Shown here piece by piece: positions 51,292 to 63,642 of a stretch of DNA of 64,000 bases. A program made the position numbers and the translations under genes. Positions within the stretch are counted from its first letter, which is position 1; every line of letters begins with the position of its first letter. The notes below the pieces were generated by a model that was given only the letters and a program-made list of their open reading frames with translations, did no database searches and was not told the DNA's origin. Source of the DNA: an uncultured Nitrososphaerota archaeon (GTDB taxonomy: Archaea; Korarchaeota; Korarchaeia; Korarchaeales; Korarchaeaceae); the NCBI GenBank assembly GCA_964594835.1, contig CAZQNA010000003.1:32001-96000 (forward strand), in the 5' to 3' direction.

Positions 51292-51359
51292 CGGCAGGCC
51301 TCACAGCCGCTGGCGGTCGAAAGATAACCCGTCGGCCGCGCGCGCTGGCCGGGAATAGA

Positions 51360-51376
51360 TTACCCATAGTGGGTAA
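51360..51376. promoter_or_regulatory. Palindromic operator TTACC-N7-GGTAA upstream of the ABC importer operon
   Basis: TTACCCATAGTGGGTAA, 53 nt upstream of TTTATATT (51430-51437); same motif at 63372-63388. Confidence 0.7.
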
Positions 51377-51484
51377 AAAGGGATGATTTTGGATTAAATT
51401 TTTCTAACTAGTTGCGTGACGGGAGCAGGTTTATATTGTATTTGTTCGGCAAAAGGTTACCACACCATAGGCAAAGGTGGTCGT

Positions 51485-53101
51485 ATGTCCGAGACCCCCC
51501 GACGGAACTTCTTGAAGGTGGCCGGAGCGGCCGTCGTGGCCGCCGCCCTGGGCGTCATAGGGTATAAGGTGGCCAAGAAGCCGTCCCCCACACCCACCCC
51601 CACCACCCAGCCGCCCTCAACCACCGCGGCCCCTACCACCGCCCCGCCAGCCAAGGAGAAGGTCCTCATCTTCGGGCTGAAGGAGGACGTGGTGACCCTC
51701 GACCCGGCCATGCACAGGAAGAGGGTCACCGAGAGCGTGATCCAGCAGTATGCCGAGCCGCTGTTCTGGAGGACCAACGACATGCGGGTCATCCCGCACC
51801 TGCTTGAGTCCTACGAGTTCGTCGACGACCTGACCTGGAGGCTGAGGCTGAGGAAGGGGATCAAGTTCCACGACGGGACCGAGCTGAAGGCGGAGGACGT
51901 GAAGTTCACCCTGGAGAGGATACTCGACCCCAACCAGAACTCCCCCAGGGCCAGCATGATCGACGAGATTGACACCATCACGATAATCGACGACTACACC
52001 CTGGAGATCAAGACCAAGTACCCGAGCGGCCCGCTGATGGTGGACCTCACGTACCAGGAGATCCTGCCCAAGCACGCCGTCGAGGCGCAGGGGGAGGACT
52101 TCTTCAAGAACCCGTTCAGCACGGGCCCGTTCAAGTTCGTGGAGTGGGTGCCCGGAGAGAGGATAGTGTTCGAGAAGAACCCCGACTACTGGGGCGGTCC
52201 GGCTGAGGTGCCGCCGGTCGGCCCGCCGAAGGTCGACAAGCTGATCTTCAAGATCATACCAGACTCCGCCACCCGAATGCAGGCCCTCAAGGCCGGAGAG
52301 ATCCACATCTCCTACGGGTTCACCGCCGACCAGGCCGAGGAGATGGCGAGGGACCCGAACCTGGTCGTCGAGAAGGTCAGGGCGGCCAGGTCCGTCTTCG
52401 TGTTCCTGAACACCCACAAGGCGCCCTTCAGCGACAAGAGGGTCCGGCACGCCCTCAACATGGCCGTTGACGTCGACTCCATCATCCAGAACGTGCTGAA
52501 GGGATACGGGCGCAGGATAGCGTGCATGTCCTTCCCGGGCGTCCTGGGGCACGACCCGAACCTGGAGCCCTTCCCGTACGACCCCGACAGGGCGAAGCAG
52601 CTGCTGGCCGAGGCCGGCTACCCGGACGGCTTCGACGCCGTCATGATGTACGACGAGGAGTGGAGGAAGGACCAGGCCGAGGCCATCGCCTACTACCTGG
52701 GGCAGGTCGGCGTCAACGTCACAATCCAGCTGATGGACTGGGGCACCATCAAGAACGAGTACCTCCTCAAGGCCAAGGGAGACATGTACTTCGGCTCCTG
52801 GGGATGCGGCGAGCTGGAGCTCTACGGGAACGTGAACTCCACCTTCGCCAGGGAGGAGAACACCTACGCCTTCCTCTACCACAACGATGATGTCACCAGG
52901 CTGATGAAGGAGGCCCTCGCCACCCTCGACCCGGAGCAGAGGGCCCAGAAGTTCATGGAGCTCGAGAGGATCCTCCAAGAGGACGCTCCCGCCATCTGGC
53001 TGTGGGAGCAGTTCGACCCGTGGGTCTACAGGAAGGAGGTCACCTTCACCCCCAGGACCGACGAGAGGTACAACCTGGTGGACGCCGACATAAGCGTCTA
53101 A
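51485..53101 (+). CDS. dppA: Peptide/opine/nickel-family ABC substrate-binding protein with Tat signal
   Basis: MSETPRRNFLK twin-arginine signal; Pro/Thr linker; TLDP, LRKGIKFHDG, STGPFKF, DKRVRHALNMAVD, YDPDRAKQLLAEAG. Confidence 0.93.
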   Translation: MSETPRRNFLKVAGAAVVAAALGVIGYKVAKKPSPTPTPTTQPPSTTAAPTTAPPAKEKVLIFGLKEDVVTLDPAMHRKRVTESVIQQYAEPLFWRTNDMRVIPHLLESYEFVDDLTWRLRLRKGIKFHDGTELKAEDVKFTLERILDPNQNSPRASMIDEIDTITIIDDYTLEIKTKYPSGPLMVDLTYQEILPKHAVEAQGEDFFKNPFSTGPFKFVEWVPGERIVFEKNPDYWGGPAEVPPVGPPKVDKLIFKIIPDSATRMQALKAGEIHISYGFTADQAEEMARDPNLVVEKVRAARSVFVFLNTHKAPFSDKRVRHALNMAVDVDSIIQNVLKGYGRRIACMSFPGVLGHDPNLEPFPYDPDRAKQLLAEAGYPDGFDAVMMYDEEWRKDQAEAIAYYLGQVGVNVTIQLMDWGTIKNEYLLKAKGDMYFGSWGCGELELYGNVNSTFAREENTYAFLYHNDDVTRLMKEALATLDPEQRAQKFMELERILQEDAPAIWLWEQFDPWVYRKEVTFTPRTDERYNLVDADISV

Positions 53102-53102
53102 A

Positions 53103-53123
53103 CCTTCCCCCCTCTCTTTTTTA
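53103..53123 (+). terminator. Pyrimidine/T tract after the substrate-binding gene (partial terminator)
   Basis: CCTTCCCCCCTCTCTTTTTT directly after the stop codon. Confidence 0.4.
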
Positions 53124-53142
53124 TCCGGGAGCGTGTGTCGCA

Positions 53143-54168
53143 ATGTTAGACCGGGATCTGCTCCGGCTGATCGGACGGCGCATCGTCGGACTAATCCCCG
53201 TGATGTTCGGGATCGCCATAATCGTCTTTCTGGTGTTCAGCTTCGTCCCGGGAGACCCGATCACGATGCTGATAGGCAAGCAGAGCGACGTCAGCGAGGA
53301 GTTCATACAGCAGCTCAGGCACAAGTATGGGCTGGACAGGCCCCTCTACATCCGATTCTTCTACTTCCTCCGCCAGCTGGCCCACGGAGACGTCGGCACA
53401 TCCTACCAGTTCAACAGGCCCGCCCTGGAGGTCGTACTTGAGAGGCTCCCGGCCACGATTGAGCTGGCCATCTTTGCGCTGGCCGTGGCCATCCTGATAG
53501 CCATCCCCGCCGGCATATTCGCCGCCCTGAAGGGAGGGGCGGTGGACAGGGGCATCGTGGGCCTCTCCGTGGTCGGCTTCTCGATGCCCAACTTCTGGAT
53601 AGCCATGCTGCTCATCCTCGTGTTCGGAACCACCCTGAAGGTCCTCCCAATCTCGGGGAGGCTGGACGTCACCCTCGACGTCGAGAGGGTGACGGGCTTC
53701 TACATCCTAGATGGGATATTGGCGGGGGACTGGGAGGTCGTCAGGTCGGCCCTGAGCCACATAATCCTCCCGGCCCTGTCCCTGGGCATCCCGGCGGCCG
53801 CCCTGATAGTCAGGCTCCTGAGGAACAACCTCATCAGCGTCCTGGGGGCCGAGTTCATCAGGGCCGCCAGGGCCAGGGGGCTAAGAGAGAGCGCCGTGAT
53901 ATACAAGCACGCCCTCCGGAACGCCCTGATCCCTACGATCAACATCGTGGCCCTCCAGCTGGGCTTCTTCCTGACCGGCTCCTTCTTCGTCGAGACCGTC
54001 TTCGCCTGGCCCGGGATGGGCCGGCTGGCAGTGGACGCGATCTACGCCAGGGACTACCCGGTGGTGATCGCGGCGGTGATGATATCGGCGCTGTTCTTCG
54101 TCCTCTCAAACCTGCTGGCCGACGTCCTGATCCTGGTGACGGACCCGAGGACGAGGGGGGTGAGGTGA
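53143..54168 (+). CDS. dppB: Peptide ABC transporter permease
   Basis: VPGDP, GLDRPL, LPATIEL, SMPNFW, FIRAARARGL EAA loop, ETVFAWPGMG, DPR; start ATG 53143. Confidence 0.95.
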   Translation: MLDRDLLRLIGRRIVGLIPVMFGIAIIVFLVFSFVPGDPITMLIGKQSDVSEEFIQQLRHKYGLDRPLYIRFFYFLRQLAHGDVGTSYQFNRPALEVVLERLPATIELAIFALAVAILIAIPAGIFAALKGGAVDRGIVGLSVVGFSMPNFWIAMLLILVFGTTLKVLPISGRLDVTLDVERVTGFYILDGILAGDWEVVRSALSHIILPALSLGIPAAALIVRLLRNNLISVLGAEFIRAARARGLRESAVIYKHALRNALIPTINIVALQLGFFLTGSFFVETVFAWPGMGRLAVDAIYARDYPVVIAAVMISALFFVLSNLLADVLILVTDPRTRGVR

Positions 54169-55092
54169 TTGAGCGCGGGCAGGAGGATCGTGACGGTGCG
54201 CGACGACCTCCTGAGGCTCATCAGGGGGCCGACGGTCAGCTACATGAGGAGGGATCCCGGCGCAATAGTGGGGGGCTCAATATTCCTCCTGTTCGTGGTG
54301 TCGGCCCTCTTCGCCGGGTACGTGGCACCGTACGATCCCTACGAGGCAGACCTCGGCAATTCTCTGAGGCCCCCGGTGGGGTTCGGGGGCAGATGGGAGC
54401 ACCCGCTGGGGACGGACGCGATTGGGAGGGACCTGCTCAGCAGGCTGATCTACGGGGCCAGGATCTCTCTGTCCGTGGCGGCGGTCTCCGTGACCCTGGC
54501 CGTCATAGTGGGCGTCTCGCTCGGGGCCCTCTCCGGGTACTTCGGCGGGGTGATAGACGAGGTCCTGATGAGGATCGTCGACTTCTGGCTCAGCTTCCCC
54601 GCAGTGCTGATGGCCATCTCCCTGATGGTGGTCCTGGGCCCAGGCTACTGGAACGTGGTGGCCGCCATGACGCTCACCTCCTGGGTTCCCTTCGCGAGGG
54701 TCGTGAGGGGGGAGTTCCTGACCCTAAGGGAGAGGCCCTTCATCCTGGCCGCGAAGGCGATAGGCGTGGGGAGCGGCCACATAATCTTCAGGGAGGCGCT
54801 TCCCAACACCTTCCCGTCCCTGATAGTCCTCTCGACCTTTCAGCTGGCCAGGAACATAATCTACGAGGCCTCGCTCAGCTTCATCGGGATCGGCGTGAAG
54901 CCGCCCAACCCCTCCTGGGGCCTCATGCTCGGGACCGGGAGGCAGCACATACTGGACGCCTGGTGGATAGCCATGTTCCCCGGGCTCGCGATCACCCTGG
55001 TCGTGCTTGGGATCAACCTACTGGGCGACTCGCTCAGGGACGCGCTGGATCCGACCGTCAAGAAGAAGCTGGGGGTTGTGGAGGTGCAATGA
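54169..55092 (+). CDS. dppC: Peptide ABC transporter permease
   Basis: HPLGTDAIGRD, GARISL, FILAAKAIG, EASLSFIGIG, PSWG, NLLGDSLRDALDP. Confidence 0.95.
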   Translation: MSAGRRIVTVRDDLLRLIRGPTVSYMRRDPGAIVGGSIFLLFVVSALFAGYVAPYDPYEADLGNSLRPPVGFGGRWEHPLGTDAIGRDLLSRLIYGARISLSVAAVSVTLAVIVGVSLGALSGYFGGVIDEVLMRIVDFWLSFPAVLMAISLMVVLGPGYWNVVAAMTLTSWVPFARVVRGEFLTLRERPFILAAKAIGVGSGHIIFREALPNTFPSLIVLSTFQLARNIIYEASLSFIGIGVKPPNPSWGLMLGTGRQHILDAWWIAMFPGLAITLVVLGINLLGDSLRDALDPTVKKKLGVVEVQ

Positions 55093-56060
55093 CGGCGCTA
55101 CTCTCGCTCCGGGACGTGACCAAGTACTTCGAGATCAAGAGGGGGATGTTCGAGAGGAGAGTCGTCAAGGCCGTCGACGGGGTCAGCTTCGACGTGGAGG
55201 AGGGTCAGACAGTCGGCCTGGTCGGGGAGAGCGGGTCAGGCAAGTCGACCCTCGCCCTGACGGTCCTGAGGCTGTACGAGCCGACGGGAGGGCAGGCATT
55301 CTTCGAGGGGGAGGACCTCTTCAGCCTCAGGGGTCGGGAACTCACCAGGCTGAGGAGGAAAATGGGGATCGTGTTCCAAGACCCCTACCTCTCCCTGAAC
55401 CCCGTGAAGAGGGTAAGGGACATCGTGGGCCTCCCGCTGAAGGTCCACGCCCCGGACCTGAGCTTCGAGGAGAGGGAGGCCAGGATAAGGGAGATGCTGG
55501 AGCAGGTGGGCCTGAAGGCGTCTGACATCGAGAGGTTCCCGCACGAGTTCAGCGGCGGGCAGAGACAGAGGATAGCCATAGCCAGAGCCCTGATAGTCAG
55601 GCCCAAGTTCCTCATCCTGGACGAGCCCACGTCGGCCCTGGACCTCTCCGTGCAGGCGAAGATACTCAACCTGCTGCTGGACCTGCAGAGGGAGTTCAGG
55701 CTGACCTACCTTTTCATAACCCACGACATGAACGTGATCAAGCACATCTCCGACAGGATCAACGTGATGTACCTCGGCAAGCTCGTGGAGTCCGCCGAGA
55801 CCGAGGAACTCTTCGAGAGACCGCTCCACCCGTACACCCAGGCCCTCCTGTCGTCTGTCCCGACCCTGGACCCCAGGCGGAGGGGCAGGAAGAGGATACT
55901 GCTCAGGGGGGACCCGCCGGACCCGGCCAACCCGCCCTCGGGGTGCAGGTTCTCCAGCAGGTGCCCGCTGGCCGAAGAGATCTGCAGGCGGGAGGAGACC
56001 CCGCTGGTCGAGGTGGAGCCCGGCCACTGGGTGGCCTGCCACAGGGTGGGGGGTGGCTGA
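55089..56060 (+). CDS. dppF: Peptide ABC transporter ATP-binding subunit
   Basis: Start ATG 55089; GESGSGKST, FQDP, FSGGQRQR, LDEPTSALD, HPYT, PPSGCRF...CP...C...VACH. Confidence 0.95.
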   Translation: MTALLSLRDVTKYFEIKRGMFERRVVKAVDGVSFDVEEGQTVGLVGESGSGKSTLALTVLRLYEPTGGQAFFEGEDLFSLRGRELTRLRRKMGIVFQDPYLSLNPVKRVRDIVGLPLKVHAPDLSFEEREARIREMLEQVGLKASDIERFPHEFSGGQRQRIAIARALIVRPKFLILDEPTSALDLSVQAKILNLLLDLQREFRLTYLFITHDMNVIKHISDRINVMYLGKLVESAETEELFERPLHPYTQALLSSVPTLDPRRRGRKRILLRGDPPDPANPPSGCRFSSRCPLAEEICRREETPLVEVEPGHWVACHRVGGG

Positions 56061-57142
56061 TGGTGCTCAGGATGGTCGCTCTCTCCGGTGGGCCCCGGGA
56101 GATGGGGCTCCAGCTCGGGAAGGAGGTCAGGTCCCTGACCCCCCACATCAGGGAGCTCTTCGACGCTGTCCGGAGGGAGATAGGGGAGAACCTCTCCCTC
56201 GAGAGGCTCGTGGGGGACATGAGGGCCGTGGTCGAGAGGCACTCCCCCGAGTTCATGGAGATGCTCGAGGGCGTGGCCGAGGGTGCCTGGTTCGCCAGGG
56301 ACATCCTGTTCGAGACGACCTGCTCCACGTTCCTCAGACACATGCTGCACTACGGCCTGGAGTGCTCGGTCTGGGCTGTCAGGGCTGAGCACACGGTCGT
56401 AGGGGAGCCCATCCTGGCCAAGAACAGGGACAAGAGGGTCAGGTACAAGCCCCTCCACCTGTTCGTCTACGCCAGGCCGAGGGACGGCCTCGCCTACTTC
56501 GCCTCCACGAACGCCGGCGACCCGGGGGTGGCTGGGGGAGGGATGAACGAGAGGGGCCTGACCGTGTTCTCGACGTACGTGGCCTCGTCCGACATCGGGG
56601 TGGGCCTGCCCGACAACGTCCTGGCGAAGATGATACTCGAGAGCTGCTCCACGGTGGAGGAGGCCATAGATCTCCTGAAGTCGGTCCCCCGGCTCGGCCA
56701 GTTCACCTTCACGCTGGGCGACTCCAAGGGGGACATAGCCGTGGTGGAGGTCGGATACAGCGAGCTCGACGTGGAGTTCCCCGAGTCCGGGTACGCCTTC
56801 CGGACGAACCACTTCAAATCCGCCAGGATGAGCGAGAGGTACTACGACCCCTACCACTACACCGAGTACGAGAGGGAGGACACCCTGGCCAGGTGGAGGC
56901 ACCTCGACGAGAGGGTGCGGGGTGCGCTGGGCACCATAGACCTGAACTTCGTGAAGAGGCTCATGAGGTACCACGACCCGGCGGGGCACTCGATCTGCAG
57001 GCACGTGGGGGAGGGGGACGTCCCGATAGAGACCGTGGCGTCCATGATAGCCCTGCCCAGAAGGACCAGGATCCTCTTCGCCGAGGGGCCGCCCTGCGAG
57101 CACCCCTACATGTCCCTGGACCTGGGAGGTGGCATGCCGTGA
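56060..57142 (+). CDS. C45-family Ntn hydrolase (acyl-CoA:6-APA acyltransferase-like amidohydrolase)
   Basis: Start ATG 56060; G.PREMGLQLG pro-region, EMLEGVAEGA, LE|CS Cys nucleophile, LAKNRD, GMNERGL, RTNHF, SICRH, GPPC. Confidence 0.85.
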   Translation: MVLRMVALSGGPREMGLQLGKEVRSLTPHIRELFDAVRREIGENLSLERLVGDMRAVVERHSPEFMEMLEGVAEGAWFARDILFETTCSTFLRHMLHYGLECSVWAVRAEHTVVGEPILAKNRDKRVRYKPLHLFVYARPRDGLAYFASTNAGDPGVAGGGMNERGLTVFSTYVASSDIGVGLPDNVLAKMILESCSTVEEAIDLLKSVPRLGQFTFTLGDSKGDIAVVEVGYSELDVEFPESGYAFRTNHFKSARMSERYYDPYHYTEYEREDTLARWRHLDERVRGALGTIDLNFVKRLMRYHDPAGHSICRHVGEGDVPIETVASMIALPRRTRILFAEGPPCEHPYMSLDLGGGMP

Positions 57143-58116
57143 CGCTTCTGGAGGTAAGGGACCTGAAGGTCTACTACTACGCCTTCGACGGCGTCGTGAG
57201 GGCCGTCGACGGCGTCTCCCTGAGCATAGGGACCGGCGAGTTCTTCGGACTCATAGGGGAGTCCGGCTGCGGGAAGTCCACCCTGGGCAACGCTATCCTG
57301 AGGCTGGTCCCGCCCCCCGGAATGATCTCCGGGGGGAGCATCTACTTCCAGGGGGAGAACCTCCTCTCCCTCTCGGAGGAGAGGATGAGGGATATCCGGG
57401 GAGACAGGATCTCCATGATATTCCAGGACCCGACGGCCGCGCTTGACCCGGTCTACACGATAGGGGACCAGATCGTCGAGACGATCCTGGCCCACAACCC
57501 CGACTACGGGAAGAGGGAGGCGGAGCAGAGGGCCGTGGAGCTCCTCAAGCTAGTGGGGATCCCGGGGGCCGAGGCTAGGATCCACGAGTACCCCCACCAG
57601 TTCAGCGGGGGCATGAGGCAGAGGGCCGTCATAGCCATAGCCCTGGCGAACAGCCCTGAACTCTTGATAGCGGACGAGCCGACCACCAACCTAGACGTGA
57701 CCATAGAGGCCCAGATCCTCACCCTCCTGGACCAGCTGAGGAGGAAGCTCAACATGTCCATCCTCCTGATAACCCACAACATAGGGATCGTCGCCGAGTA
57801 CACCGACCGAGTGGGCGTGATGTACGCCGGGAAGTTAGTCGAGTTGGGCAACACGGTGGACGTGCTCACCGACCCCAAACACCCTTATACCCAGGGCCTG
57901 CTCGGCGCGATACCTGGAAGGGGCGGCAGGAAGGGTCGGGTCACGGAGATCCCCGGGACCGTCCCGAACCTGTCCAGCCCGCCTCCCGGGTGCAGGTTCC
58001 ACCCCAGGTGCCCCAGGAGGTTTGAGCCCTGCGACCGGGAGGAGCCTCCGCTGGTGGAGCTCCCCGGCGGGGGGAGGATGGTCGCATGTCACCTGTACAG
58101 GGGTACCGGAAGCTGA
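57139..58116 (+). CDS. dppD: Peptide ABC transporter ATP-binding subunit
   Basis: Start GTG 57139; GESGCGKST, ISMIFQDP, YPHQFSGGMRQR, ADEPTT, HPYT, GCRFHPRCP. Confidence 0.95.
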   Translation: MTLLEVRDLKVYYYAFDGVVRAVDGVSLSIGTGEFFGLIGESGCGKSTLGNAILRLVPPPGMISGGSIYFQGENLLSLSEERMRDIRGDRISMIFQDPTAALDPVYTIGDQIVETILAHNPDYGKREAEQRAVELLKLVGIPGAEARIHEYPHQFSGGMRQRAVIAIALANSPELLIADEPTTNLDVTIEAQILTLLDQLRRKLNMSILLITHNIGIVAEYTDRVGVMYAGKLVELGNTVDVLTDPKHPYTQGLLGAIPGRGGRKGRVTEIPGTVPNLSSPPPGCRFHPRCPRRFEPCDREEPPLVELPGGGRMVACHLYRGTGS

Positions 58117-59069
58117 ATGAGAACATGCTCGAGATCCTGGCCATCCTCGACGGGATCGAGGGGCCGGCCACGTCGGGCGAGATCCAGAGGGAGCTGAACA
58201 GGCGTGGCATCTACCTCAGCCAGAGGACCATCAGGTACTACCTGAAGCTCATGGACGAGCTGGGGCTCACCAGGAAGGTGAGGAAGGCCAGGCAGATAAC
58301 TAGCGAGGGCCGCAGGAGGATGCGGGCCCTGACGGTCTCCACTAGGATGGAGTGGATGCTGGACAGGATGTACCAGAGGATAGCTGAGATGGACTTCGAC
58401 CTCGGGGAGGGGAGGGGGACCGTGATCGCCAACAAGCTGTTCATCAGGAGGGAGGACTTTACCTGGGTGATGAGGCACGTCCTGAGCCTGGGGAAGGAGG
58501 TCCCCAGGATTCTCTTCTACCCGAGGTTCCAGGTGAGGGAGTTGGGCCTCAGGAGGGGGGACCTCTTCGAGATCAAGTACGTGTCCTCGAACACGCTCTA
58601 CGGCATACTCCTCAGGAACGGGGTCCCCGTGAGCATAAAGGGCGTCGGCCTGCTCGAGCTCAGAGACTACAGGCCCACTACATTCTCGGAGGTGATGCAC
58701 TACTCAGGCACGACGATAAGCCCCTCCCAGCTCCTGATATTCGCGGGCATGACCAAGGTCTCGGAGGCGGCCAAGAGGGGGACGGGAACGGTCCTGGCCA
58801 CCTTCGGGGAGATCCCCTACAACAGCATCTCGAAGGCCCAGAAGATACTCGAGAGGATGAGGGGGCTCGGCTTCGAGGGTATCATGGAGATAAGGGAGCC
58901 GGGGTTCGCCTACGGCCTGAGGACCGGGAAGCTGAGGGGCGTGGTGATCAGCGTCACGGGCGCGAACTTACCGGCCATGATAAGGGAGGGCGGCTTCGAT
59001 ATCAGGATGGCCTTCGACACCGGGATGGAGGAGCTGGAGTCCTTCGACAGGAGCGTCATCCCGGTCTGA
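58086..59069 (+). CDS. NrpR-like regulator (wHTH + DUF128/NRD domain)
   Basis: EILAIL...LSQRTIRYYLKLMDELGLT...RQITSEG wHTH; MDFD...GTVIAN, SNTLYGILLRNGVP, YSGTTISP, GTVLA, GAN conserved DUF128 blocks; start may be ATG 58125. Confidence 0.82.
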   Translation: MSPVQGYRKLNENMLEILAILDGIEGPATSGEIQRELNRRGIYLSQRTIRYYLKLMDELGLTRKVRKARQITSEGRRRMRALTVSTRMEWMLDRMYQRIAEMDFDLGEGRGTVIANKLFIRREDFTWVMRHVLSLGKEVPRILFYPRFQVRELGLRRGDLFEIKYVSSNTLYGILLRNGVPVSIKGVGLLELRDYRPTTFSEVMHYSGTTISPSQLLIFAGMTKVSEAAKRGTGTVLATFGEIPYNSISKAQKILERMRGLGFEGIMEIREPGFAYGLRTGKLRGVVISVTGANLPAMIREGGFDIRMAFDTGMEELESFDRSVIPV

Positions 59070-60465
59070 CCGGAGAGACGGAGTCAAGGAGGATCTTCAG
59101 GGCCTTGTCCGGCTCCCTCCCGGCTAGGAGGCCCATGGCCCAGAAGACGTAGGCCCTGTCAACGTACATGTCGGGCTCCCTAGGCTTGAGGACGAAGGGC
59201 CTGGACTCATCGTAGACCGCCTCGCCGAGGATCCTCCAAGGCCTCCTGCTGTTAACGATCGGGCCCCCCGTGCCGACGACCGTCCTCACACCGGTCAGGT
59301 CCTTCCCCGTCAGGACGTAGAACTTCCCCATGGGGGTCGGTATCTCCTCCAGTCTCCCCACGTGCCTCTCCACCCCGAGCTCGACCGCCGACCTGGCCAG
59401 CGCCTCGTCCACCAGCCAGTCGAACTCGGTCTTGGGCAGGTAGCTGGTGTGTCGGCGCAGCATGCGGATGTGCTCCTCCACGGCCTCGGGCCTGACGTCC
59501 CCTAGGTCCTCTCTGATCTTGGACACTATCCTCTCGAGGCCGGCCGCCTCCAGCAGCGACTCGGCGCTCACCCTGACCCCCAGGTCCCCCTCCACGGTCC
59601 TCTTCAAGTACGGTTCCTCTAGACCCTTCTCCACCACCCCCGGGAGTTCTGACCTCCCTTCCGCCACGCTGTAGACGTTGGTCGTGGCCCCCCCTATCTC
59701 GACGGCCAGGAGCTCTCCCATGCCGCCCTGGGAGCGGGTCCCCTCCGCGAGGAGCTCTGCCGCCCTCAGAGAGGCAGAGGGGGTGGGCATGAGGATATCG
59801 AGCAGCCCCGTGACCCTGTCTAGTCCCTTTGCCTGGATTATCCTCCTCAGGAAGATCTCCCTGATCTTCTCGTTGGCGGGCCTCACGTTGAGCTTCCCCA
59901 GCTCGGGCATGATGTTCTCGGTCCAGTAGACCTCCTTTCCGGCCGAGGAGAGTATCTCCACCACGTCGTCCCTGGCCTCCTTGTTCCCCGCCACCAGGAT
60001 GGGACAGCTGAGCCCCGAGGAGGCCAGCATCCTGGCGTTGTGCGTTATCGTCTTCTTGTCCCCGCCGTCCGTCCCGCCGGTCAGGAGGACGATGTCGGGG
60101 TCCTGCGACTCTATCGAGGCCACCTCGCTCCTGGTGAGCTCAAACGAGTACACCCCGATGACCTTGGCCCCGGCCGTCAGCGCGGCCCTCCTGCCAGCCT
60201 CGGCGCTGTACTTCGGCACCAGCCCGACGACGACCATTTTCAGCCCGCCTGCGGCGCTGCTGCAGGCCAGCCTGTACTCGAAGGGGCCGTCCGACAGGTC
60301 GTCGAGGGAGAGTCCGATCTCCCCCAGGGCCCTCGCCAGCCCGTGCCTGACGTCCGTGTCCACCGTGCTTGGCGCCCTGGAGGAGGAGACCACCCGCTCC
60401 TCCCCCAGGTCGACCACGACGGCCTTGGTGAAGGTGCTTCCGAAGTCTATCAGGAGGGCCCGCAA
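59056..60465 (-). CDS. glmL: GlmL/MutL-family reactivating factor for cobalamin-dependent mutases (ASKHA ATPase)
   Basis: LLIDFGSTFTKA, ACSSAAGGLKM, AALTAGAKV, LTGGTDGG, AGNK, MPTPSA, EIGGATTNVYS, KRTVEGDLGVR, RHVG, GKDL, GTGG. Confidence 0.9.
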   Translation of the reverse strand: MRALLIDFGSTFTKAVVVDLGEERVVSSSRAPSTVDTDVRHGLARALGEIGLSLDDLSDGPFEYRLACSSAAGGLKMVVVGLVPKYSAEAGRRAALTAGAKVIGVYSFELTRSEVASIESQDPDIVLLTGGTDGGDKKTITHNARMLASSGLSCPILVAGNKEARDDVVEILSSAGKEVYWTENIMPELGKLNVRPANEKIREIFLRRIIQAKGLDRVTGLLDILMPTPSASLRAAELLAEGTRSQGGMGELLAVEIGGATTNVYSVAEGRSELPGVVEKGLEEPYLKRTVEGDLGVRVSAESLLEAAGLERIVSKIREDLGDVRPEAVEEHIRMLRRHTSYLPKTEFDWLVDEALARSAVELGVERHVGRLEEIPTPMGKFYVLTGKDLTGVRTVVGTGGPIVNSRRPWRILGEAVYDESRPFVLKPREPDMYVDRAYVFWAMGLLAGREPDKALKILLDSVSPVRPG

Positions 60466-60468
60466 GGG

Positions 60469-61554
60469 CTATTCTCCCCTCACGAACGCCACTATATCCT
60501 CCGCGGACATCCCCTCCAGACCGAGGTTCCTCGCGCTCCTCCCCTCTCTGTAGAAGTCCCTGTCGAAGACCGCCGAGGCTATGGATATGAGGGACCTCGA
60601 GACGGGGGTGCTCACCCCGACCTGCTCCCCCACGTCGGCGTAGGGCACCAGACCGGTGGGGACGTCCTCCAGGAGGTACCTGACGGCCAGCGTGGAGGGC
60701 GCCTTTATCCCCCTGTAGGCCTCGTTGTTCTGCAGGGCCTCGTAGACATCCTTCCCCCTCGCACCGTACTTCTCCTCCAGCCACTCCAGCAGGCTAAGTA
60801 CGTGGGTGTCTAGCGCCCGCGCCAGGGCCACCCTTTCGGCGTCTACCCTCTCAAGCACCTTGGACACGGATGGGCTGGCGCCCTCCACGTAGAACTCGAA
60901 GTCCCCCCCGCGCTCTATCCAGCCCGCGTTCATGAGCGTGATCGTGGGGTGGAACACCGCCCCTATGTTGGTGAGGCTGGTCTCGAGCACGTCCCTGGCC
61001 CCGTCGAACTGCGGGTATAGCTGGCGGATCGTGTCCAGCAGCTCTCCGGTGTCGGGGGCTGGAAGGGCGGCCAGCCTGACTTCCTTCTTGACCCCGAGCA
61101 CCCTCGCCCTCGTGGGGGACAGCCCCCTGGCCGCGTAGACCAAGGTCTCGGCCTCTCCGACTATCACTCCCTCGGCCCTCTCTCCCAGTATCCTCTTGAA
61201 CTCGATCGCCCCGAAGGTCCTGCCCGGGTTCAGCAGGATCTTCTGACCCCGCCGGAGGTGGGGGGCGATCGACCGGGCGATGTGCCTGTGGGCGTGGGCG
61301 GGGACGACCACCATGATCAGGTCGGCGTCCCTCACGGCCTCGCCGGCGTCGGTGGTGGCGAGGGCGATGGGGCCGAAGCCCTCGACCGCCCCCTCCAGCT
61401 CTATCCCTCCCCTCCTCCTGACCTCCCCGAGGTCAACGTTGAACTCCGGCTCCCTCTCCTTGTAGTTGTAGAGCCGGACCTCGTGCCCCATCAGGCCCAG
61501 GTGGGCGGCCATGGCCTTGCCGCCGTGGCCGGCGCCCATCACGGCTATCCTCAT
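60469..61554 (-). CDS. NAD(P)-dependent opine (octopine/nopaline) dehydrogenase family protein
   Basis: GAGHGG Rossmann, NPGRTFGA, EAETLVYAAR, TSLTNIGAVFHP, FYVEG, VDAER, RYLLEDVPTGLVP. Confidence 0.92.
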   Translation of the reverse strand: MRIAVMGAGHGGKAMAAHLGLMGHEVRLYNYKEREPEFNVDLGEVRRRGGIELEGAVEGFGPIALATTDAGEAVRDADLIMVVVPAHAHRHIARSIAPHLRRGQKILLNPGRTFGAIEFKRILGERAEGVIVGEAETLVYAARGLSPTRARVLGVKKEVRLAALPAPDTGELLDTIRQLYPQFDGARDVLETSLTNIGAVFHPTITLMNAGWIERGGDFEFYVEGASPSVSKVLERVDAERVALARALDTHVLSLLEWLEEKYGARGKDVYEALQNNEAYRGIKAPSTLAVRYLLEDVPTGLVPYADVGEQVGVSTPVSRSLISIASAVFDRDFYREGRSARNLGLEGMSAEDIVAFVRGE

Positions 61555-61580
61555 CCAACCGCCTCCCTTCGCCCGCCTGC

Positions 61581-63266
61581 TCAGATAAGTCTCCCCTTGA
61601 AGTAGTCGTCCAGGATCCTGCGGACGCGCTCCTCCTCCGGCAGGGGCCTCTTGGTCTCAGGGTCTACTGCGTGGGCCGCCCCGTTGATGATCCTGGTCTC
61701 TATCTCTCCCCTGGCGTATGGGTTGTTCTTCAGGTGGGGGGCGTCCAGTATCCCCACCTTCAGGGCCCTCGCGAGAGTCTGGGGGTCGGTCCACGGGTCC
61801 TTGACCCCAGGGTCTGCGATCTTCCTTATGGCGTCCAGCGTCACCTTTGCCTCCCTCACCAGCTCCTCCCTCCTCGCATGGATCTTCGGGTCCCTCGTCA
61901 CGTCGGGCAGGCCGTGCAGCGTGTCGCTGATCACCTGGTGCACGATCTTGCCGCTCTCTATGATCTCCTCGGCCGTGGCCGCATGGTCGGGCTCGGTGTA
62001 CGCGACCATGTGGATTATGTGGGGCTTCAGGTGCATCTGCATCGTCACGGAGTAGGCCATGTGGCCCTTGGCCGCGTCCAGGTCGGGCGGGTAGCTGGAC
62101 AGGCCCGTCCTGGTCTGGATGAAGATCTTGAAGTTCTCGTCCTCCAGGGGCTTGATTATGTCTATCTTGGCCAGCTGCTTGGCCAGGTCCATCTCGGCAG
62201 AAATGCCGGGCGGGAGGTCGAACATGAGGGTGGCGATGTAGTGCCTCACTCCCGCCTTCTTGGCGTTGTAGGCGGAGAGGAACGCGTCTGCGACGGCGAT
62301 GACGTCAGGGGCGTCCCTGAGCTCGAAGTGGTGGGGCTCGTTCAGCTCGACCGGTATGCCCCTCTCGCCGTGCCAGGCCATCAGCCTCTGGTGCTCGTCT
62401 ATGGCCTCGACCAGGTCAAGGGGGCCCCTCCCGTCGAGCCTGCTGAACCAGAACAGCGGGATGGCCGCCCAGGCGTTCTTGATGGTCCTGACCAGGAGGT
62501 CGGCCATCTTGAACAGGTCGCTGGTCCCCTGGTAGCACCTGAGGAGCGGGTAGTTGCCCGTCCTGGTCGCCTCGTATATCTTGACGAGGTCGTCCTCTGA
62601 CCTTATGGGAACGCCTCCGGCTCCGGCCCTCCCTGGATCCCACTTCTCTGGGTGGAAGAAGTTCTCCTGGAACTCCTGGTCGGGGGCTATCGAGATGACG
62701 TCTATCAGCCTGGACTCCGCCACCTTCCTGGCGGCCTCGACGGTCTCCTCGACGGAGCTGAGCCCCAGGTGCTGCCGGATTATGGGGTACGGGTACTTCC
62801 AGGCGATCCTCTCCACGGTCGTCTGCGGATAGTGCTCCTCACCCTTGCCGGCCTCACCCCCTCCCTTGAGGTAGGAGACGACCTCGTCCATGGTCTCCCT
62901 GCCGCTGAACACCCTGTCGAAGAAGCCGAAGCTCTCCGCCACCTCTGCCACCGGAGGAGTCCCTCCGAAGACGTACCTCTTGCCCTCGAGCCCGGCCTCC
63001 CTCACGGCGCTGATGAATCGCTCTATCCAGTACCTCCCGGACTCCGGCATCAGCCTGTAGCTGATCCCGACTATGTCAGGGTCCGTCTCCTTTATCGCCG
63101 CCACGATCTCCTCGGGGGTGTTTGCCGGCCCCAGGAATATGGTGTCGTAGCCAACCTGCTCGGCCAGCCTCAGGAACTTGATTATCCCGGCCACGTGCAC
63201 GTCCTCACCAAGAGCGGCGGCGAGGATCTTGGGCCGCCTCTCCTCGCTCTTCTCGCCGGACGACAT
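61581..63266 (-). CDS. Single-chain cobalamin-binding mutase-like enzyme (B12-binding domain + catalytic barrel)
   Basis: N-terminal GEDVHVAG (DxHxxG)...FLG...GISYRL...FGG base-off/His-on B12 domain fused to about 420 aa barrel-like domain with GAGGVPIRS; co-operonic with glmL. Confidence 0.85.
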   Translation of the reverse strand: MSSGEKSEERRPKILAAALGEDVHVAGIIKFLRLAEQVGYDTIFLGPANTPEEIVAAIKETDPDIVGISYRLMPESGRYWIERFISAVREAGLEGKRYVFGGTPPVAEVAESFGFFDRVFSGRETMDEVVSYLKGGGEAGKGEEHYPQTTVERIAWKYPYPIIRQHLGLSSVEETVEAARKVAESRLIDVISIAPDQEFQENFFHPEKWDPGRAGAGGVPIRSEDDLVKIYEATRTGNYPLLRCYQGTSDLFKMADLLVRTIKNAWAAIPLFWFSRLDGRGPLDLVEAIDEHQRLMAWHGERGIPVELNEPHHFELRDAPDVIAVADAFLSAYNAKKAGVRHYIATLMFDLPPGISAEMDLAKQLAKIDIIKPLEDENFKIFIQTRTGLSSYPPDLDAAKGHMAYSVTMQMHLKPHIIHMVAYTEPDHAATAEEIIESGKIVHQVISDTLHGLPDVTRDPKIHARREELVREAKVTLDAIRKIADPGVKDPWTDPQTLARALKVGILDAPHLKNNPYARGEIETRIINGAAHAVDPETKRPLPEEERVRRILDDYFKGRLI

Positions 63267-63267
63267 G

Positions 63268-63284
63268 CAACCACCCAGCGGTAA
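63268..63284. promoter_or_regulatory. Imperfect operator CAACC-N7-GGTAA between TATA box and start codon of the B12 gene
   Basis: CAACCACCCAGCGGTAA, 1 bp from ATG 63266; TATA (minus strand TTTTAAAG) at 63313-63320. Confidence 0.55.
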
Positions 63285-63371
63285 GGTGTTGCCGGGTTGG
63301 CGCGCGTCGGTTCTTTAAAAACCCTAGCAAATATCCCAGATAAATGTTTATTACTTCCATATAATCTCAGT

Positions 63372-63388
63372 TTACCGGAAAAGGGTAA
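63372..63388. promoter_or_regulatory. Palindromic operator TTACC-N7-GGTAA upstream of the B12 operon
   Basis: TTACCGGAAAAGGGTAA, 51 nt upstream of the minus-strand TATA; same motif at 51360-51376. Confidence 0.7.
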
Positions 63389-63642
63389 CATGATTGCCAG
63401 GTGGCCGATCTGGGCGGCCGGGCGGCAGACAACGGTTGGGGGGATCCGGTGGCGGAGATGATCGATTTTAGCCGCAGCGCCCGACCTCGTTCACAGAGTC
63501 CTGGGATCGGCCGTCTGTTGAAAAACGGCATCTTGTTGGGATTACGTGCCTTTCCCCAACTCCGGCAAGGTGGTCGAGATCCCCGCCCCCCTCCAAGCTG
63601 GTTAAGACAATGGTTATGACCTAGTCCCGGCGCGGGGTGGGC

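Follow-up and report, generated by a model that had tools for sequence, protein, structure and literature searches.

Two perfect palindromes as candidate operators of an NrpR-family protein on a variable island of an uncultured archaeon

Described NrpR systems and the present locus

NrpR is described in the literature examined as a nitrogen repressor of methanogens only, and a statement from 2012 has it as apparently restricted to Euryarchaeota (PMC3584215). The signal of the characterised proteins is 2-oxoglutarate, as given in passages of PMC11957540 and bioRxiv 10.1101/2020.05.06.080432. The locus considered here is in a 64,000 nt stretch (the window) of contig CAZQNA010000003.1 from an uncultured archaeon. 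A ten-gene cluster in the window consists of an ABC importer operon, the last gene of which encodes an NrpR-family protein, and a convergent operon that begins with a gene for a B12-binding protein. A perfect palindrome of the type TTACC-N7-GGTAA is found ahead of each operon. Judged from the sequence, these two palindromes are probably operators of the NrpR-family protein, in which case the importer operon would be autoregulated and the B12-mutase operon co-regulated.

NrpR of Methanococcus maripaludis belongs to the same family (PF08461 plus PF01995) and its operator consensus, GGAAN6TTCC, is also a spaced inverted repeat (operator passage of PMC2723118). The half-site centres are 10 bp apart both in this consensus and in the ACC-N7-GGT core of the window sites. 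M. maripaludis NrpR has more than one operator per regulon, as would be the case here; the title of a 2005 paper by Lie et al. reportedly names two operators at nif. The window protein differs in having one NRD instead of two, and is predicted to act on an ABC importer operon and a B12-mutase operon in place of nif, glnA and glnK-amtB. The perfect sites also lie upstream of the TATA box, unlike the M. maripaludis context, and the genome has no PII or Amt match.

NrpRI of Methanosarcina mazei and Methanosarcina acetivorans shares the one-NRD architecture and is of similar length, and the nearest named relatives of the window protein include Methanosarcinales proteins. Unlike Methanosarcina, there is no partner gene with an NRD alone (NrpRII), and the targets and the site position are different. 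An ACC-N7-GGT operator is said to have been described in Methanosarcina by Weidenbach et al. in 2008; a literature search found no text that gives it. If the description is right, TTACC-N7-GGTAA would include that core.

A further parallel is TrmB of Thermococcus and Pyrococcus, which is an archaeal winged helix-turn-helix (wHTH) protein that acts as a local regulator from within the ABC sugar-importer cluster it controls, on a transferred, variable island and by way of palindromic sites. In the window, binding is predicted. The sensor domain of TrmB is however unrelated to the NRD, repression by TrmB uses sites that overlap the promoter or come after it, and its ligand is the transported sugar.

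The two palindromes and the island regulator

The reference genome consists of 24 contigs with a total of 1,818,972 bases, has 65% G+C and is 97% complete. The exact TTACC-N7-GGTAA pattern is present twice in the window, where none is expected from 100 dinucleotide shuffles, and the same two copies are the only ones in all 24 contigs. Half-sites are rare, with 400 TTACC and 414 GGTAA in the genome, and from these about 0.09 full sites are expected per genome. The same arms with every other spacer length from 0 to 15 give a total of two sites. Each operon leader has one of the two palindromes, and these enclose the ten-gene cluster. Thus the two perfect sites and the ten-gene cluster of convergent operons, as described in the initial annotation of the window, are confirmed, with a cluster length of 12.7 kb, and the genome-wide scan proposed there returned exactly these two copies.

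As the motif was picked after being seen, a wider null was used, which asks for any perfect 5+5 palindrome with equal arm and equal spacer (0–12) common to both intergenic regions. When the two regions (193 and 370 nt) were shuffled, such a shared palindrome appeared in 2 of 3000 shuffles.

The regulator is found at 90% identity in two of the four congeneric genomes, and this permits the footprinting of orthologous promoters that had been suggested. The B12 palindrome is identical at 17 of 17 positions in both of these congeners, the spacer included, and the importer palindrome at 15 of 17, where it reads TTACCCTTAGTGGGCAA. Against either congener, identity is 44–53% in the 100 nt upstream of the palindromes and 80–81% from the palindromes to the ATG. 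Thus the sites are kept while the flanks diverge, and the palindromes form the upstream edge of conserved promoter blocks. A metagenome locus with a B12 gene 96% identical to that of the window also keeps the palindrome (17/17) at equal distance.

Conservation could be followed within one genus, since there are no relatives of the regulator between 36% and 91% identity, either among the 1.84 billion representatives of a HMMER search or in a word-indexed search. In 19 metagenome loci with B12 homologues of 52–56% identity the motif was near the gene in none. In a genome from a different family of the phylum, which has no NrpR-family match, a B12 homologue of 54% identity lacks a matching upstream site; the locus contains a single one-mismatch site at about 2.7 kb from the gene.

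The two leaders are built alike. The distance from the palindrome end to the ATG is 108 nt for the importer operon and 105 nt for the B12 operon, and the distances from palindrome to TATA-like box (Table 1) agree with those in the initial annotation. Each leader has a single TTACC near the expected transcription start. Each also has a second AT-rich box between the palindrome and the best TATA-like box, and that of the importer operon may be an alternative TATA box or the site of another factor. In a genome-wide AT profile all-A/T octamers upstream of genes led by a Shine-Dalgarno sequence concentrate at −60 to −40 (a weak signal, n = 68), which speaks mildly for the proximal boxes being the TATA boxes.

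The initial annotation counted two further sites in these leaders. The first, CAACC-N7-GGTAA next to the B12 gene start, is a two-mismatch site and does not rise above chance, as the window has 8 sites with two or fewer mismatches where 6.7 are expected. The second, TTACC-N8-GGCAA in the importer leader, is a half-site, and one additional half-site in each intergenic region has a probability of about 0.23 and about 0.41. A different perfect palindrome, TGACC-TCCCCGA-GGTCA, is present at positions 61419–61435 inside the opine-dehydrogenase-like gene and is probably due to chance.

The regulator displays the two domains that had been read from its sequence, wHTH and DUF128. The winged helix-turn-helix (PF08461, 1.6e-13) is at residues 16–77, and the NRD (PF01995, formerly DUF128) scores 5.5e-45, with 153.9 bits against a cut-off of 25. 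The NRD structure of MJ0159 (PDB 3nek) matches residues 84–308 at 7.3e-12. An alignment of 40 sequences shows that the putative recognition helix, SQRTIRYYLKLM (SQRTIRYYL), departs little from the ERTVRYHL consensus of the family and that the protein keeps the three invariant glycines. The island has no other recognisable gene for a DNA-binding protein and the genome no other PF01995 gene; the regulator is thus not a paralogue as first described.

Among 43 genomes of the phylum the NrpR family was found in three, all of this genus and all carrying the cluster. The HMMER search gave 322 matches at E ≤ 0.001, of which one cluster, from the same genus, is at 91% identity and all others are at 36% or below. 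Named relatives at 30–36% comprise a DUF128 protein of Syntrophobacterales besides proteins from Methanosarcinales and Methanoperedens that carry the annotation repressor of nif and glnA. Public records of the regulator's own cluster and of near-identical loci are labelled Korarchaeota, Thermoproteota or Thermoplasmata, and because of these conflicting labels the name of the phylum is left open here. Related to the family as a whole, an unrelated AT-rich archaeal genome (locus L068, G038:C80:1-4630) has a canonical one-NRD NrpR gene with glnA and a glutamate-synthase-like gene as its neighbours. In the leader of that glnA a TTCGA-N8-TCGAA can be seen by eye, after the AT-rich box and ahead of the start codon; it may represent a further operator variant in the family, and is too anecdotal for use.

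The sites themselves, their uniqueness in the genome, their conservation, the matching layout of the leaders and the presence of a sole NrpR-family gene lead to the reading of the palindromes as NrpR operators, which is the most likely one on the basis of location, uniqueness, conservation and family precedent. The consensus operator would be TTACCC-N5-GGGTAA, bound by the 58086–59069 protein. Presumably as a dimer or higher oligomer, the regulator would bind one palindrome ahead of each convergent operon and would control its own importer operon together with the B12-mutase operon, and the regulon would be private to the 12.7-kb variable island. Binding, oligomeric state, sign and effector are the predicted parts of this model. 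Simple occlusion of the promoter would not account for the upstream position, and characterised NrpR operators are located at the promoter or downstream of it. As to the sign of regulation, repression, maybe by looping to the weak promoter-proximal half-sites, is placed slightly ahead of activation from the upstream site. The effector may be 2-oxoglutarate, as in characterised NrpR, or a metabolite of the pathway; for an importer of the peptide type, 2-oxoglutarate would be physiologically sensible. The original proposal of one local regulator over both operons thus stands in its core, on account of the unique and conserved sites, but not in its paralogue or its third and fourth sites.

Several observations weigh against this reading. 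A search for sequencing runs that contain window positions 53501–63500 listed none from RNA. The perfect sites are 50–53 nt upstream of the best TATA boxes, a position that differs from the promoter-proximal one of characterised NrpR operators. The half-site sequence is not that of the verified GGAAN6TTCC. The regulator departs from the family consensus at several near-conserved NRD motifs, and its score of 154 bits with the NRD model compares with 313 for the canonical NrpR homologue beside glnA. The importer palindrome is imperfect in both congeners, where one arm is GGGCAA. The exact pattern has 33 copies in 40 genomes of the phylum that do not carry the regulator, compared with 28 for a reversed control pattern; it is therefore at chance level in the phylum, and its zero count in the two congeners that do not have the island is uninformative. 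One congener also has a third exact copy, TTACCCATACTGGGTAA (GTTACCCATACTGGGTAAC), at locus L016 (G001:C27:49484-49500). This copy is in strain-specific DNA with no counterpart in the present genome, adjoins a fragment of an MFS-transporter gene and has a G/C-rich hairpin after it. The spacer of the copy differs at one base from that of the importer site of the present genome.

Table 1. Positions of genes, palindromes and promoter elements in the window.
Feature	Position	Strand	Remarks
Importer-promoter palindrome, distal	51360–51376	.	TTACCCATAGTGGGTAA; 7-bp arms TTACCCA/TGGGTAA; spacer CATAGTG
Second AT-rich box, importer operon	51394–51405	+	ATTAAATTTTTC; starts about 17 nt past palindrome; invariant block
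Best TATA-like box, importer operon	51430–51437	+	TTTATATT; 53 nt past palindrome, 55 nt before ATG; invariant in three genomes
Proximal TTACC half-site, importer (TTACC-N8-GGCAA)	51457–51474	+	Near expected transcription start; conserved with whole proximal promoter, indel in congeners
Substrate-binding protein, Opp/Dpp/Nik-type ABC importer	51485–53101	+	PF00496 at 2.8e-97; TAT signal; family 5
Permease 1	53143–54168	+	PF00528, PF19300
Permease 2	54169–55092	+	Opp4C, NikC and DppC-like matches, all below cut-off
ATPase 1, OppD-like	55089–56060	+	PF00005, PF08352; GGAGGTG ahead of start
C45-family autoproteolytic Ntn acyltransferase/hydrolase	56060–57142	+	NF040521, 182.5 bits (cut-off 85); PF03417
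ATPase 2, OppF-like	57139–58116	+	PF00005, PF08352
NrpR-family regulator, wHTH and one NRD	58086–59069	+	327 aa; last gene of importer operon; overlaps ATPase 2 gene by 31 nt
GlmL-type mutase accessory protein	59056–60465	-	Last gene of B12 operon; NF040745, 574 bits (cut-off 475); PF13941
Opine-dehydrogenase-like NAD(P) oxidoreductase	60469–61554	-	PF02317 at 1.3e-48
B12-binding domain fused to domain of about 430 aa	61581–63266	-	561 aa; first gene of B12 operon; PF02310 N-terminal; PDB matches cover B12 domain only
Proximal TTACC-GCTGGGT-GGTTG, B12 operon	63268–63284	-	Just before start codon; second arm overlaps Shine-Dalgarno-like GGTGGT; conserved, inside Shine-Dalgarno/start region
Best TATA-like box, B12 operon	63314–63321	-	TTTTTAAA; 50 nt past palindrome, 55 nt before ATG; invariant in three genomes
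Second AT-rich box, B12 operon	63340–63351	-	ATAAACATTTAT; 20 nt past palindrome; invariant block; counterpart of 51394–51405
B12-operon palindrome, distal	63372–63388	.	TTACCGGAAAAGGGTAA, or TTACCCTTTTCCGGTAA along transcription; spacer GGAAAAG

Other explanations of the palindromes

One alternative is about the signal alone and can hold together with the palindromes being operators of the island protein. The protein would be a classical 2-oxoglutarate nitrogen repressor with one target left, a peptide or organic-nitrogen scavenging island, and not a substrate-specific sensor. This is possible, if doubtful. An alanine symporter is included in the M. maripaludis NrpR regulon (regulon passage of PMC2723118), and an Opp/Dpp-type importer takes up nitrogen-rich substrates. 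However the classical targets of NrpR, i.e. nif, glnA and glnK-amtB, do not make up the regulon here. The one glnA of the genome has no site of the TTACC-N7-GGTAA type to be seen in its upstream region. PII and Amt have no match in the genome and no credible nifH was found there, the best candidate reaching 24.8 bits over 38 positions among weak P-loop matches to the NifH model. With no PII or Amt match, nitrogen control in this genome probably runs through another system. Also unfavourable to a classical repressor are the identity of at most 36% to any relative outside the genus and the fact that the regulator travels with the island. As a separate observation from the sequence, glnA faces a divergent gene for an Lrp/AsnC-like regulator (G000:C6:45406-47100).

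A broader proposal is that a lineage of NrpR has left nitrogen control, is island-borne outside Euryarchaeota in an archaeon with relatives labelled Korarchaeota or Thermoproteota, acts from a site about 90 bp upstream of the transcription start as an activator or by looping to promoter-proximal half-sites, and responds to a pathway metabolite in place of 2-oxoglutarate. All of this together is rather unlikely. A literature search of main texts returned no report of an NrpR-family protein that controls genes other than those of nitrogen metabolism.

The palindromes may also be real cis-regulatory sites of a different, chromosome-encoded factor, with the NrpR-family protein bound elsewhere or on the proximal half-sites. 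The upstream position, atypical for NrpR, would suit such a factor, and the genome does encode other wHTH regulators, e.g. the product of a TrmB-like open reading frame on contig C7 and the Lrp-like one beside glnA. For a chromosomal factor one would expect more sites; the genome however has no exact copy besides the two, and 9 of its 11 one-mismatch sites are inside frames that are open for more than 1.1 kb. The best intergenic one (C6:22749, KaiC-like/MFS) was considered as a further member of the regulon and rejected, as it is not conserved in the congeners; thus no site outside the island has support. Another one-mismatch site is at C7:11037. The island moreover brings its own regulator, and a host factor is accordingly an improbable explanation.

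In a third alternative the palindromes would mark the borders of a mobile island or serve in its recombination. Comparison with the congeners identifies the 12.7-kb cluster as a variable island. The two congeners that carry it are homologous to the window from positions 51346–51355 to 68121, and the 3.6 kb to the left, with a DUF2339 gene, is replaced in them. A further congener, G003 (95% complete), has the two flanks within a single contig (locus L042, G003:C65) and carries between points corresponding to about 51002 and about 63678 a 3.8-kb cassette with FGase-like, GCS2-like and ATP-grasp genes. The same chromosomal position thus holds different cassettes, either the 12.7-kb importer/NrpR/B12 cluster or the 3.8-kb set. 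This exchange, and the beginning of homology with the other two congeners at 5–14 nt from the left palindrome, are what speak for boundary sites. The right palindrome is at no break in homology, and the palindromes are about 360 nt (left) and about 290 nt (right) inside the G003 breaks. The spacers are also unlike each other, CATAGTG and GGAAAAG, and do not provide a common crossover core. Both properties argue against a role in recombination. No tRNA gene or terminal repeat is found at the island ends and no integrase family was matched in the family scans of the window proteins, so that boundary sites are highly improbable.

A chance coincidence or RNA hairpins are an equally remote prospect: the left site does fold as a 7-bp hairpin (−7.5 kcal/mol) and the pattern is no commoner elsewhere in the phylum than chance predicts, but the right site folds no better than shuffled sequences (z −0.3 to −1.6), the arm change in the congeners is uncompensated, the sites are conserved amid diverged flanks, and the shuffles seldom share a palindrome.

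Genes of the two operons and significance of the regulon

The importer operon has seven genes on the plus strand and the B12 operon has three on the minus strand. Starts and stops in the importer operon overlap or abut and a GGAGGTG-like sequence precedes most starts. The importer is of the Opp/Dpp/Nik type, with a family-5 binding protein, two permeases and two ATPases that have the oligo_HPY tail. The NCBIfam matches of the binding protein (GsiB, Opp4A, NikA and CntA) are sub-threshold, and as all equivalog scores are under the cut-off the substrate of the importer cannot be named. The gene for the C45-family Ntn hydrolase is located between the two ATPase genes, which is an unusual place for an enzyme gene.

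In the B12 operon, the domain of about 430 aa that is fused to the B12-binding domain is probably GlmE-like. The fusion protein of the window has no match to PF06368 (GlmE) at E ≤ 0.001; its homologues at 52–69% identity often display a weak one, e.g. 27.3 bits in locus L049. The B12 domain is below the GlmS equivalog cut-off (26 compared with 110 bits). The protein family is very large: at E ≤ 1e-10 it counts more than 6,451 proteins, of 52–69% identity, from Chloroflexota, Bipolaricaulia and others.

An opine-dehydrogenase-like gene directly follows the B12 gene in five of the six long metagenome loci (L049, L050, L053, L054 and L055), which are bacterial and have otherwise unrelated neighbours. 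None of these five loci contains GlmL, the ABC importer, NrpR or the C45 hydrolase. The pair thus travels alone in bacteria, and the conserved unit is the B12/opine-dehydrogenase-like pair, for which no paper was found in a literature search. This weakens the earlier idea of a module for uptake, hydrolysis, rearrangement and deamination, as the pair is found in the absence of GlmL, the importer and the C45 hydrolase. The four-step catabolic scheme is one possibility.

The practical value of the finding is modest, since the organism is uncultured and tests would have to be made in vitro or in a heterologous host. The locus is however a clean test case, in which one regulator goes with two candidate operators and two operons, and the genome offers no competing sites. 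It can serve to decide if the NRD sensor has been recruited to a different signal, and if NrpR-family proteins can work from a position upstream of the promoter. It also offers a regulatory handle on a very widespread and uncharacterised gene pair, i.e. the fused B12 mutase-like and opine-dehydrogenase-like genes.

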